Assembly: GCA_963710575.1 (NCBI GenBank)
Contig: CAVQAL010000003.1
Coordinates: forward strand, 319,387-383,386
Direction of reading: 5' to 3'
Origin: an uncultured delta proteobacterium
GTDB taxonomy: Bacteria > Desulfobacterota > Syntrophia > Syntrophales > Smithellaceae
DNA: 64,000 bases
Shown here in pieces: positions 21,970 to 60,106 of this stretch (within the stretch, counting starts at the first letter, position 1; every line of letters begins with the position of its first letter). The translations under genes and the position numbers were made by a program. The notes below the pieces were generated by a model. The model did no database searches. It was not told the origin of the DNA and worked only from the letters and a program-made list of their open reading frames with translations.

Positions 21970-22545
21970 TTACATGCGACTCGGTAGTAAGAATCTCCAT
22001 GGAGCTTCTCTATGTTCTTTACTGGCATAATCAATGCCTATCCGTGGAGTTGTTATGATGGATTTGGCCGGGATTTTTTTGTAATCAGCCACCCACAGTT
22101 CTTTGCCGCGGGTTAAATCCCAGCCGTTCAAAGACTTGTCTATTGACAACGCTTGACAGAGCTTGGCAGGACCGTTCGTTAATTCAGCTCCTTTTCTCTT
22201 TCGGCGAACTTCCATCGCTTCAATTCCGGTAAGCGGCAATATCGATCGAATAAGCACAGCGCATGGATTGTCTTTCGCTTCAGTCACCAGGTTGAGCATG
22301 TAGTGCATGCCGTAAGTAAAATAAACGTAAGCATGACCGGGTTCGCCGAACATAACAGCATTGCGCGCAGTTTTGCCTCGGTGAGCATGGCAGGCGCCGT
22401 CCGTTTCGCCACAGTATGCTTCGGTCTCCACAATCATTCCGGCAAGCTCAAGGCCGTTGATTTGTCGCACCAATTTTTTTCCTAAAAGCGTGCGGGCAAC
22501 TTGCAGTGTATCGCGCCGATAAAATTTTCTGTCCAATATGCTCAT
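21970..22545 (-). CDS. mpg: DNA-3-methyladenine glycosylase (MPG)
   Basis: IVETEAY, MFGEPGHAYVYFTYGMH, NGPAKLCQAL, TPRIGI. Confidence 0.93.
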   Translation of the reverse strand: MSILDRKFYRRDTLQVARTLLGKKLVRQINGLELAGMIVETEAYCGETDGACHAHRGKTARNAVMFGEPGHAYVYFTYGMHYMLNLVTEAKDNPCAVLIRSILPLTGIEAMEVRRKRKGAELTNGPAKLCQALSIDKSLNGWDLTRGKELWVADYKKIPAKSIITTPRIGIDYASKEHREAPWRFLLPSRM

Positions 22546-22777
22546 GATTAATCCAGCTTCTTAAATATTTTTTCCAGCAGGTACTCGTATAAAGCCGGAA
22601 GAACATTGTCTGTCTTGATGTTAGACAAATTTTCCATGTTTTACGAAGTTCGCTTTTGGTGCTTATTACCACGAAATACGAAATGCTGTAAACGGGTATT
22701 TATTTGTAATTATGTAAGATTTTTATTTCCTAGAAAAAGAACATATGCTAGTATGATATCCAAAATATCGGAAAAAG

Positions 22778-22803
22778 CGAAGTTCGTATATTAATTGTTA
22801 TGC
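22778..22803 (+). other. attI-like motif ending in core site GTTATGC
   Basis: cgaagttcgtatattaattGTTATGC; 21/22 identical to 59627-59648; core complementary to GCATAAC at 23394. Confidence 0.5.
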
Positions 22804-22808
22804 CGTGA

Positions 22809-23390
22809 GTGATGACAATGAATAATGACTTTGAAATAGTCAAATCCATTTTGGCCGAGCTGAGATCTGATTACATTGCAGGTTGTAAACTTGATAAAAT
22901 GGATCAAAAGGCTCCAATAACTGAACGTGATATCGTAGCTGAGATTTATTGCAGGCTTAAAGATTTCTGTAGCAAAAATGGATTGAGCGTTCACTGCGAA
23001 ATAAAGCCTGCAACTGATGAAAATGCAGAAACCAAACATTTAATAGGACTTCCCAAGATAGATGTTGGCATTCTCTCAAATATTAATGAACGAACTTGGA
23101 TATCATCGGCGATGAAACTTCAAGATAAATATAAGAAAGGCCTCATCGAGGCGAGGTTCTCATCAATTTCAGTTGAGTTTTTTCACACTGCAATAGAAGT
23201 GAAAATCCAAAGCAATTTAAATGATGCAAAGAAGGATATAAACATCCTCAAACATCTTCATGATTCAAACAAAGCATGTAATTGCTTTTTCGTTCTACTG
23301 AATGCAAGGGGTCAAAGGTCAGATCATGATGCCATACAGAAATTTGCTGATCGTGAAGGTATCTGTGTTCTTGAATACACTTGCAGATAA
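22809..23390 (+). CDS. Cassette-borne hypothetical protein, PD-(D/E)XK nuclease-like
   Basis: TERDIVAEIY, PKIDVGI and AIEVK spacing; AT-rich; promoterless arrangement between core site and attC. Confidence 0.5.
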   Translation: MMTMNNDFEIVKSILAELRSDYIAGCKLDKMDQKAPITERDIVAEIYCRLKDFCSKNGLSVHCEIKPATDENAETKHLIGLPKIDVGILSNINERTWISSAMKLQDKYKKGLIEARFSSISVEFFHTAIEVKIQSNLNDAKKDINILKHLHDSNKACNCFFVLLNARGQRSDHDAIQKFADREGICVLEYTCR

Positions 23391-23393
23391 AAG

Positions 23394-23454
23394 GCATAAC
23401 ACGCAAATCCAGCGGACGGCTTACGCCGCCGCTGATCAGCACGCTCCGTTGGCA
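23394..23454 (+). other. Integron attC recombination site
   Basis: R'' GCATAAC, L'' atccagcgg, central hairpin, L' ccgctgat, R' GTTGGCA; 61 bp directly after the stop codon. Confidence 0.75.
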
Positions 23455-23496
23455 CACGTACTTCTTCTTTTATATCCTAATAAGGAGGACAATGTA

Positions 23497-23952
23497 ATGA
23501 ACGTAAACGTGAATGTTAAGCGCAAATTTAAAATTAACGGAAAAGAATACAACTCTATCGATGAAATGCCTCCCGATATCCGCAACGTTTTTGAAAAGGC
23601 GATGGCTTCACAGACGGGCCCAGGCCAACCGCTAAACCCGGCAACGATGCAGACTAAAATTATTTTCAACGGCACAGAATACCCTGGCATTGACGCGATG
23701 CCGCAGGACGTCCGCCAATTATACGAACAAGTATTGAAGGCGGCGGAAACCGGCGCTGCGCCGGCTAACATTATTACAGCAGGCGACATAAGCGGCATGC
23801 AGGCAGGGCCTAAAAACTACGGGACCACCGGCATGGGAAATGTGGTAACGCCGATAAAGACAGAGCCTGCTATTTCTCCACGAACGTTGATTATCGGCGT
23901 TATGATAATCGCATTAGTTATTCTGTTTTATTTTGTGTTTCATGGCCGATGA
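23497..23952 (+). CDS. Hypothetical protein with two internal repeats and a C-terminal TM helix
   Basis: INGKEYNSIDEMPPDIR / FNGTEYPGIDAMPQDVR repeat; AGGAGG RBS. Confidence 0.7.
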   Translation: MNVNVNVKRKFKINGKEYNSIDEMPPDIRNVFEKAMASQTGPGQPLNPATMQTKIIFNGTEYPGIDAMPQDVRQLYEQVLKAAETGAAPANIITAGDISGMQAGPKNYGTTGMGNVVTPIKTEPAISPRTLIIGVMIIALVILFYFVFHGR

Positions 23953-24206
23953 TAGAAGATTGGATTAAAAGATATTTCGCTGAGGAACAGATTCCGGAAG
24001 TCCTGGATATATTATCCGGGTACGGCACGGAATCATGGCACAGGGAAGAAGATCGAGTGAAACGTGATATAGTTATTATTTCCGCCGGATCTATGGAAAA
24101 GCTCAAAGCCACGGTAATGCTGGCCAAGAACGATTATCGGGATGTGCTCATTGGTGAATCAATCGACCCATTGGTTATCGGAGAACTCAGCAAATACAAA
24201 ACTTAA
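23949..24206 (+). CDS. Small hypothetical protein
   Basis: 85 aa ORF translationally coupled (ATGA overlap). Confidence 0.65.
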
Positions 24207-24252
24207 CAAATCATTTATACGCAAAGATAATGAGGAGGCGAAAAATAAATCT

Positions 24253-24762
24253 ATGACCAGGTTACGGGCGCTTCAGGCAAACATTGTTACCCTTTCGGTT
24301 GATGCAATCGTCAATGCGGCGAATTCATCGCTTCTTGGCGGAGGCGGAGTCGACGGCGCGATCCATCGCGCCGCTGGGCCGGAACTGCTTGAAGAGTGCC
24401 GAAAGCTCGGTGGTTGCAAAATCGGCGAGGCAAAACTGACAAAGGGGTATAAACTTCCCGCGCGATTTGTCATCCACACCGTGGGGCCGGTTTGGAGAGG
24501 CGGGAAAAATGGCGAGCCGGATCTGCTTGCGTCCTGTTATCGCAACTCTCTGACCATCGCTGCCAAGCACGAGATGCGATCAATCGCTTTCCCCAGTATC
24601 AGCACCGGAGTCTATGGATATCCAATTGAGCTGGCGGCTCGAATTGCTGTGGACACTGTCTGTGCTGTGGTGCAAAAATCGTCAAAGATAGAGGAAGTGA
24701 TATTCTGCTGCTTTTCGCCAAATGATCTTGCCGTTTACGAATCCCTTCTGCTAAAGGGCTGA
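24253..24762 (+). CDS. Macro-domain O-acetyl-ADP-ribose deacetylase (YmdB-like)
   Basis: [46 protein letters not shown]. Confidence 0.93.
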
Positions 24763-59269: not shown

Positions 59270-59439
59270 GGCTAAGGATGAAGTTATCGTACACACTGCT
59301 TCCGGTAGTCTTCAAATCGTCAATTTCAACAAAAATACAACATTTCAATCAATAATCAATGATGTTGTGTATTTTTCTTTTAAAAAAAAAATGAATAGTG
59401 CTATTATTATATTCAATAAAAAAGAATAGGAGGCGGATT

Positions 59440-59604
59440 ATGGAATATAAGATTATTTCTAGTAGTGCATGGTCAGTGGACGCTGCAGTTAATATATTAG
59501 AAAAAAAGGTTAATAATTTAATAAAAGAAGGATGGGAACCTGTAGGTGGTGTTATGATAGTTGCTTTCAATGACCATGTCTACCAATCACTTATAAAAAG
59601 ATAG
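59440..59604 (+). CDS. Small DUF1737-like protein
   Basis: LEKKVNNLIKEGWEPVGGV..YQSL; GGAGG RBS. Confidence 0.65.
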   Translation: MEYKIISSSAWSVDAAVNILEKKVNNLIKEGWEPVGGVMIVAFNDHVYQSLIKR

Positions 59605-59626
59605 ACAGCCTGTAATAAGGGATAAT

Positions 59627-59654
59627 CGAAGTTCGGATATTAATTGTTCGGATA
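59627..59654 (+). other. Second attI-like motif
   Basis: cgaagttcggatattaattGTTCGGA. Confidence 0.45.
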
Positions 59655-59707
59655 ACAAGAATTGGTGTCGAATAGGCTGGAAAAGATTACGGCCGGAGGA
59701 AAAGATT

Positions 59708-60106
59708 ATGAACAAAGTCGTAGCACGGTTTGCTGATGGTAACCTGATCAAGGGCACGACAACCGACTTCTTTTCGGAGGTAGAGGTTTTTCATGTGAGC
59801 ATGTTGGACGCACCAGCCGAGGAAAAGCCTTGCGAAATCTACACGAGGAATTTGAAAGCGCTGTTCTTTGTTAAGGACTTCCTAGGTGATCCGCATTACG
59901 TCAATCGAAACGAATTCGATCCAAACCGTCCTACGATCGGGCTGAAAATAAGGGTGGAGTTCAAGGACGGCGAAGTTCTTGTGGGAACCACAACAGAATA
60001 CCACCCCGGACGTTCTGGGTTCTTCATCTTGCCGGCGGATACTAATACAAACAATGAGCTTTGTTATGTAGTCGTAGAAGCCACTAAAGAGATTAGAGTA
60101 CTGTGA
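59708..60106 (+). CDS. Hypothetical protein with internal duplication (DUF6982-like)
   Basis: KVVARFADGNLIKGTTTDF / KIRVEFKDGEVLVGTTTEY. Confidence 0.7.
   Translation: MNKVVARFADGNLIKGTTTDFFSEVEVFHVSMLDAPAEEKPCEIYTRNLKALFFVKDFLGDPHYVNRNEFDPNRPTIGLKIRVEFKDGEVLVGTTTEYHPGRSGFFILPADTNTNNELCYVVVEATKEIRVL

Follow-up and report, generated by a model that had tools for sequence, protein, structure and literature searches.

The 64,000-nucleotide stretch of DNA analysed here (the window) contains a genuine mobile integron gene cassette, and the locus in which this cassette lies most probably derives from the decay of a chromosomal integron, the type being common in the genus, with a single cassette captured at the attI crossover by attI x attC recombination. 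From left to right (Table 1), the locus consists of the mpg gene, a 29-codon stub of the integrase gene intI, the spacer between intI and attI, an attI leader bearing a predicted promoter, the cassette joined at G|TT, its attC site and a resident operon. We envisage that an integron integrase would have captured the cassette with the folded attC bottom strand as its substrate, that the cassette would be transcribed from the promoter in the leader, and that integrase supplied in trans would have allowed cassette exchange after the local intI had been truncated.

Table 1. Features of the cassette locus, with window positions, strand and the evidence used to place them.
Feature	Position	Strand	Evidence
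mpg (methylpurine-DNA glycosylase), left neighbour, not part of the element	21970-22545	-	PF02245, E 2e-70
intI remnant, ATG + 28 codons, MENLSNIKTDNVLPALYEYLLEKIFKKLD*	22549-22637	-	DNA collinearity with type-B intI
Platform spacer, intI start to cassette promoter, including motif ATTACCACGAAATACGAAAT	22638-22733	+	aligns beside intact intI in G001, G014 and G101
Putative Pc-like promoter and attI leader	22734-22797	+	occurs beside intact intI in G001, G014, G015 and G101
Gene cassette, 651 bp, TT of left core to G of right core	22798-23448	+	core complementarity, bounded homology, GC content
Cassette ORF, 190 aa, probable PD-(D/E)xK nuclease	22818-23390	+	invariant residues, AF2 model, Foldseek
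attC site	23394-23454	+	model R1 match, L055 homology, right flank common to G016 and G047
R'' GCATAAC	23394-23400	+	part of attC
L'' AAT(C)CAG	23406-23412	+	part of attC, C23409 unpaired
attC stem	23410-23434	+	A23416 bulged
L' CTGATC	23432-23437	+	part of attC
R'-like GCTCCGT at canonical position	23443-23449	+	placed by model R1
Junction core actually used, GTTGGCA	23448-23454	+	part of attC
Resident operon: 151-aa and 85-aa proteins, then macro-domain protein (PF01661)	23497-24762	+	synteny with mpg in relatives

The original prediction of an integrated cassette, an ORF with attC between complementary core sites, was borne out. Direct reading places the left core site GTTATGC at 22797-22803 and its counterpart GCATAAC at 23394-23400, 3 nt past the stop codon, exactly as predicted, and their complementarity in fact extends over 8 nt rather than 7 (GTTATGC(C), 22797-22804, and (G)GCATAAC, 23393-23400; GTTATGCC vs GGCATAAC). 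The cassette has a GC content of 0.33-0.37, compared to 0.45-0.53 for its flanks. A homologue of the cassette (P0004, 78% amino acid identity) was found within an array of five attC sites, recognised with the covariance model R1 described below, on the unrelated 55-kb contig L055 (JGI metagenome contig Ga0335070_10000327). The site located 5' of the P0004 gene ends in GTTATGC, and the attC of P0004 itself reads GCATAAC-CAGCA-AATCCAGCAGAC...CCGCTGATC-TGTCC-GTTCGGC. The DNA homology between the window and L055 begins exactly at GTTATGCC and stops at the end of attC, with both flanks being unrelated, while the related genomes G047 and G016 lose homology from the left G|TT onward and regain it within attC or beyond. 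The same unit is thus present in two contexts with recombination cores as its limits, and is therefore by definition an integron cassette.

The AAC and GTT of the core sites are fixed by the motif, and the five free bases agree, for which the chance is approximately 1/1024. Complementarity of 7-9 nt between the junction and R'' recurs in four other leader-cassette pairs of the same genome (assembly G000) and in four of relatives, and together with the independent match to an attC model this excludes chance as the source of the complementarity. We therefore attach next to no weight to a reading without any integron element, in which the hairpin would be a terminator or a REP-like repeat and the 7-8 nt complementarity fortuitous: the hairpin does follow the stop codon, and related hairpins are repeated in the genome, but neither the match to the attC covariance model, nor the junction complementarity at eight other loci, nor the presence of the same cassette in the cassette array on L055 is accommodated by it.

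Folding of the attC site gave a GC-rich stem with A23416 bulged and a second unpaired base in the 5' arm, C23409; its bottom-strand counterpart would be the extrahelical G that is typical of canonical attC. In the pairing of the L'' box AAT(C)CAG with CTGAT, C23409 stays unpaired, A23416 is bulged, and the R'' and R' cores follow the RYYYAAC/GTTRRRY pattern, with the GTT kept in the R' core GTTGGCA and its outer bases belonging to the flank, as expected. The predicted imperfect palindrome with L boxes, extrahelical bases and GTTGGCA is thus present. As a candidate terminator the stem was rejected, having no T-tract and not being called terminator-like.

The covariance model (R1) was trained on 36 clean attC sites from intI-linked arrays of relatives, none of them from G000. 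A heuristic attC finder (163 matches in real DNA vs 74 in shuffled DNA) was used solely for choosing these clean training sites. In the training alignment 89.5% of the cells were paired, and the covariation exceeded that of all 500 shuffles and all slid controls. With filters switched off, R1 gave a single significant match in the 64-kb window, at 23394-23449 on the forward strand (27 bits, E 5e-4), so that the outcome named as refuting the original prediction, no attC match from covariance models together with a bottom strand lacking the R/L box hairpin, did not arise. This match has the lowest score among the 12 full-length R1 matches in G000. The accompanying check, folding of the bottom strand, came out in part: in an unconstrained fold (z-scores of -2.1 and -1.6 for the two strands) the central stem forms on the bottom strand and the R box is absent. 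This is no surprise, as R' takes its outer half from the flank, and unconstrained folding is uninformative for an integrated attC. Rfam, which holds no attC family, returned only two tRNAs at gathering thresholds.

The spacing on the right side of the site is not canonical, with 10 nt from L' to GTTGGCA compared to the usual 5-6 nt, and with GCT instead of GTT at the canonical R' position. Since the homologous attC on L055, which belongs to the same cassette, has a normal 5-nt spacer, the window attC has gained 5 nt; it may be impaired and no longer a good recombination substrate, and the right boundary of the cassette is uncertain by these 5 nt. The right flanks agree between genomes (TTGGCA in G000, TTGGAT in G016 and TTTGGCA in G047), which places the junction in G000 at G23448|T and not at the GCT with canonical spacing. 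A GCT at the canonical R' position is also found in the G000 attC at C7:304908, and an ATT in those at C3:17270 and C10:220391, which suggests that several orphan cassettes were fixed through loss of the cleavage triplet. A promoter-like sequence (TTGGCA-18 nt-TATCCT, 23449-23478) overlaps R' and the flank just 5' of the resident operon, and could keep this operon expressed independently of the cassette.

The nature of the left junction becomes apparent from comparison with intact integrons of the same genus. Window positions 22546-22800 align end to end with the stretch from the intI start to attI in G001 and G014, which encode an intact 438-aa IntI (>410 bits to TIGR02249), with the alignment running to the contig end at the leader. 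G015 and G101 likewise encode an intact IntI (>400 bits to TIGR02249) and have assembled arrays, and in these two genomes the first cassette next to intact intI is joined at ...ATTAATTG|TT or ...ATTAATAG|TT. The individual joins read ...GGTATATTAATAG|TT in G015 and ...GGTATATTAATTG|TTATGG in G101, and the attC of the first G101 cassette begins with CCATAAC, the complement of its junction. In the window the core reads ...TATATTAATTG|TT, with the crossover after G22797. Because the intact relatives join their first cassette at the same G|TT, the leader can be taken as the attI of a type-B integron, for which both the adjacent intI and the joining of the first cassette are provided by homology.

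The intI stub, separated at its end from the start codon of mpg by 3 nt, is collinear in DNA alignment with where type-B intI begins in G001 and G014 (MENLSDCRKNDVLPEFQAFLLDKK...), and blastn of window positions 22591-22682 against L032 gave 74% identity over 93 nt (E 3e-9). The tblastn match at the protein level (48-52% over 23 aa, E ~2) is not significant alone, and the remnant is thus significant through its DNA collinearity only, not as a protein match. Further copies of the platform spacer are located in G000 at C12:14551 and C11:117098. The leader contains an extended -10-like sequence (TGCTAGTAT, 22746-22754) and the palindrome CGAAgTTCG (22778-22786). Most leader copies have a conserved extended -10-like motif, TGCTAKTAT, at a distance of approximately 45 nt on the 5' side of the crossover. 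A simple sigma-70 scan did not call the leader promoter; its conservation makes the motif a candidate promoter, from which the cassette is probably transcribed.

The same locus was identified with different cassettes in three relatives (G047, G016 and G020) and without a cassette in two others (G017 and G022), in which 159-216 bp lie between mpg and the operon and the leader has diverged. The synteny of the resident operon with mpg is kept in relatives with or without a cassette, and the platform and cassette are now located 5' of the operon. In G047, the leader, mpg and a 29-codon stub identical in kind to that of the window are collinear with window positions 21983-22799 (89% identity), followed at G|TT by a different cassette of 559 bp (GTTCGGTAT / ATACCGAAC) encoding a 170-aa membrane protein. 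In the attC of this cassette (ATACCGAAC...) the core is near-identical, the spacer has a canonical length of 6 nt and R' reads GTTTGGC, and the homology to G047 resumes from window position 23408 onward at 86% identity. The cassette at the same leader in G016 has the boundaries GTTAGCTG / CAGCTAAC, while the one in G020 has an R1 match of 29.8 bits. Across four genomes, four different cassettes have thus been joined at one and the same base. The last 121 nt of the leader (22679-22799) are 99% identical to G047:C2, compared to 86-89% for the adjacent mpg gene and operon, an excess that suggests either strong constraint or gene conversion between copies of the leader.

As G000 and G047 share the intI truncation and carry different cargo, at least one exchange must have taken place after the truncation. 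This calls for an integrase acting in trans, except if the two lineages resolved an ancestral array of two cassettes in different ways, and one of those two routes also requires IntI. The orphan site therefore probably kept swapping genes after the loss of its integrase, with the exchange presumably being catalysed by integrase provided in trans. The action of an integrase encoded elsewhere, which formed part of the original prediction, may hence still hold, given the same stub with a different cassette in G047. The other part of that prediction, ectopic insertion next to mpg, does not stand, since the left junction is an attI homologue and an intI stub lies between this attI and mpg.

Neither the window nor the G000 assembly (3.05 Mb, 19 contigs, 92% complete) contains an intact intI, as had been noted before for the window; at this completeness, an intI may lie in the part of the genome outside the assembly. 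The best TIGR02249 match in G000 is Xer-like, with 82.7 bits against a cut-off of 265 bits, so that the integrase of a complete integron is missing from this assembly, and tblastn with type-B IntI only yields the 23-aa stub. IntI is present in 53/101 genomes of the family and in 19/34 genomes of the genus. Two tyrosine recombinases near other leader copies of G000 were considered as the missing enzyme and dropped, since neither is IntI: the one at C3:13874-15030 is P4-like and located beside a tRNA, while the one at C10:179207-179899 has 230 aa and a degenerate C-terminus. In G047, an intI-like gene of type A is present but has a TAA in frame; no type-A intI-like gene was found in the other genomes with multiple leader copies.

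Single and clustered attC sites without an integron integrase are known as SALINs and CALINs, respectively (PMC4889954; PMC9024848; bioRxiv 10.1101/2022.09.11.507474). That SALINs are common, that insertion at attG sites has been shown experimentally (bioRxiv 10.1101/2022.09.11.507474) and that the assembly has no intact intI would all be compatible with an ectopic, attG-type insertion, which requires only a GWT/GTT triplet and an integrase encoded elsewhere. The target is however not an arbitrary GTT, as it consists of the conserved crossover of an attI homologue with an intI stub adjacent to it, and the repeated use of this one base in four genomes is likewise at odds with such an insertion, which we consider very improbable for this locus.

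Copies of the leader, which constitutes the last 35-70 bp of the 250-bp gap between mpg and the cassette, were found with nhmmer at 27 places in G000. They read ...ATCGGAAAAAGCGAAGTTCGTATATTAATTG|TT, preceded by an extended -10-like sequence (TGCTATTAT), and past the GTT the copies diverge into GTTRRRY-like cores. The leader variant GCGAAGTTCG is multi-copy (8-16 matches with <=3 mismatches) in G000, G047, G114, G020, G016, G006 and G071, none of which contains an intact IntI, while the variant ACCAAGTTGG is found once or twice per genome with type-B IntI, beside intI. The palindrome is kept in both variants by compensatory change. Many of the leader loci are orthologous between genomes and others are not, and the genes 3' of the leaders are mostly small and AT-rich, with products that are secreted or of unknown function.

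Six leader copies in G000 are followed by attC-bearing cassettes, with exact complementarity between junction and R'' in 5/6. In the relatives, 73 leader loci from six genomes (177 kb) contained 11 attC sites (R1, E <= 1), all 11 in the leader orientation and four with junction complementarity of 8-9 nt, while approximately 0.4 correctly oriented matches were expected from a density of 14 sites per 3.05 Mb on both strands. This density is that of the genome-wide R1 search in G000, in which 14 sites reached E <= 1, six of them in two clusters of three, and G000 hence has several integrase-less attC loci. The two clusters (C3:161593-169417 and C11:252921-255953, 32-53 bits) have no leader or integrase nearby and represent classical CALINs.

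These copies also allow for a reading in which no integron was ever present at this locus, and in which the promoter-attI module is itself a dispersed, duplicating element (~27 copies per genome), at times with a fragment of the 5' end of intI attached, and provides many docking and expression sites filled with cassettes by an integrase encoded elsewhere. The copy number in G000, with similar numbers in six relatives lacking IntI, fits this reading, as do the six copies followed by attC-bearing cassettes, the uniform orientation of the attC sites downstream of 11/73 leader loci in relatives, the presence of the intI-proximal part in two other G000 copies, and the 99% identity of the leader between G000 and G047 next to flanks of 86-89%. 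The collinearity of the window copy with a complete platform however includes the start codon of intI and ~14-23 codons of this gene, and the synteny of stub, mpg and operon in G047 fits the decay in situ of one integron; in addition, no spreading mechanism was found for the module, and no empty module with recombination scars was seen. We therefore consider it unlikely that the locus arose in this way, and retain the decayed integron as the preferred explanation.

For the module copies as a group, we tentatively propose, as a possibility that we rate below an even chance, that in an integrase-poor subclade the promoter-attI module has multiplied to ~10-27 copies per genome, which would act as dispersed docking and expression sites that are filled and emptied in trans. 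If true, this would represent a distributed integron and a general source of many of the isolated cassettes (SALINs) in bacterial genomes, and if the extra module copies are also used, the textbook picture of one attI per integron needs widening.

A recurrent 3' element (GTTRCACCTTTCAA..GTAATCCTCAATTC and a hairpin) follows several attC sites and is also present upstream of many leaders. In G000 it was noted as (G/A)TTRCACCTTTCAA..GTAATCCTCAATTC with a short hairpin at C7:304914(-), C14:181095, C3:17330, C10:220396(-), C10:88954(-) and C7:78842. In several attC sites the R' core marks its exact start, and many leaders have a copy 60-150 bp on their 5' side. The 3' element, promoter and leader may form one inter-gene module of roughly 210 bp. 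An empty slot, with the leader joined directly to the 3' element, was found in none of the leader copies.

Several other observations were made on leader and attC loci. The window itself contains a second leader copy within 59398-60106 (...AATCGAAGTTCGGATATTAATTG|TTCGGA, GTT at 59646-59648), located between a 68-aa ORF (59398-59604) and a 132-aa ORF (59708-60106). The unit of 68-aa ORF and leader is duplicated at G000 C6:193473, and both G006 and G047 have orthologues of this leader locus, of which that in G047 is followed by different DNA. At G000 C3:16202-18395, a leader is followed by a frameshifted rsgA-like GTPase gene as cassette (GTTCGGTG / CACCGAAC), with a transposase of the IS110 family, members of which target attC sites, immediately beyond its attC. 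The intact integron array on L038 (G015:C31) contains on its reverse strand, at ~240-2790, three near-identical GC-rich palindromic elements of ~230 bp without genes, inserted at GTT junctions, the first directly at attI; they resemble a module that propagates itself, in the form of an empty cassette or a hairpin.

With regard to the cargo, the open reading frame begins with GTG at 22809, 5 nt after GTTATGC, which is the distance originally predicted, and has in-frame ATG codons at 22812 and 22818 and a TAA stop codon at 23388-23390; the family alignment (consensus MNxDF) shows that the real start is the ATG at 22818. The protein of 190-192 aa has no Pfam, NCBIfam or PADLOC family and a sequence search of the PDB was empty, while 148 homologues with 50-92% identity were found in several phyla. 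Residues E63, D84 and E129-x-K131 are invariant in the alignment of 36 homologues, as are other residues. The AlphaFold (AF2) model has a pLDDT of 91.4, and Foldseek gave weak matches (TM ~0.45, E ~1e-3) to NucC, SgrAI, BbvCI, Bse634I, NgoMIV and EndoMS, with NucC and the type II restriction endonucleases as best PDB structure matches and EndoMS lower. The restriction-endonuclease-like fold, albeit with weak fold matches, and the E...D...ExK motif make this a probable small nuclease of the PD-(D/E)xK fold. It would act as a nuclease, and a role in defence or another accessory function is plausible. Other homologues adjoin IS21, AIPR, HipA and NERD genes without attC sites, and since no attC was found in four other contexts (L051-L054), the gene family is not exclusively cassette-borne. 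With this cassette, the known cargo of integrons gains a further family of small nuclease-like proteins, which is widespread and has no name.

The origin of SALINs is debated between integron decay and ectopic attG insertion, and on the preferred reading the window locus settles one case. Loss of the integrase has been proposed as the origin of CALINs by Cury et al. 2016 (PMC4889954), who found recognisable intI pseudogenes near only 15/279 CALINs in a search with C-terminal profiles and >50% coverage. Such a screen would miss the stub in the window because this represents the 5' end of intI. SALINs outnumber CALINs in genomes (3400 vs 2961; bioRxiv 10.1101/2022.09.11.507474). The window locus is by definition a SALIN itself, with one attC-bounded cassette, a single significant attC in 64 kb and intact intI lacking both within 4-10 kb and from the assembly as a whole, but it differs in having retained attI and a 5' intI stub, from which its origin is directly readable.

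Cassettes inserted at attG are located outside att sites, with a GWT consensus (Loot et al., bioRxiv 10.1101/2022.09.11.507474). The window cassette resembles these in being isolated, with a resident promoter close by and resident genes downstream of it, while its target is an attI homologue and not a degenerate GWT site. There is also a clear likeness to sedentary integrons with inactivated integrase, with a fixed locus by a housekeeping gene, a decayed intI and arrays differing between related species. The ilvD-linked integrons of Xanthomonas are reportedly sedentary chromosomal integrons of this kind, with an inactivated integrase. In contrast to such integrons, the array in the window consists of one cassette, intI has been almost wholly deleted rather than inactivated by point mutation, and the attI-promoter module has many extra copies in G000. 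Natural evidence for continued cassette exchange at an orphan attI, presumably via integrase in trans, comes from the comparison with G047. Overall, the locus fits a kind of element that is already known, a SALIN or CALIN formed by integrase loss, here with unusually complete relics, and it is the multi-copy attI modules which are the more novel lead.
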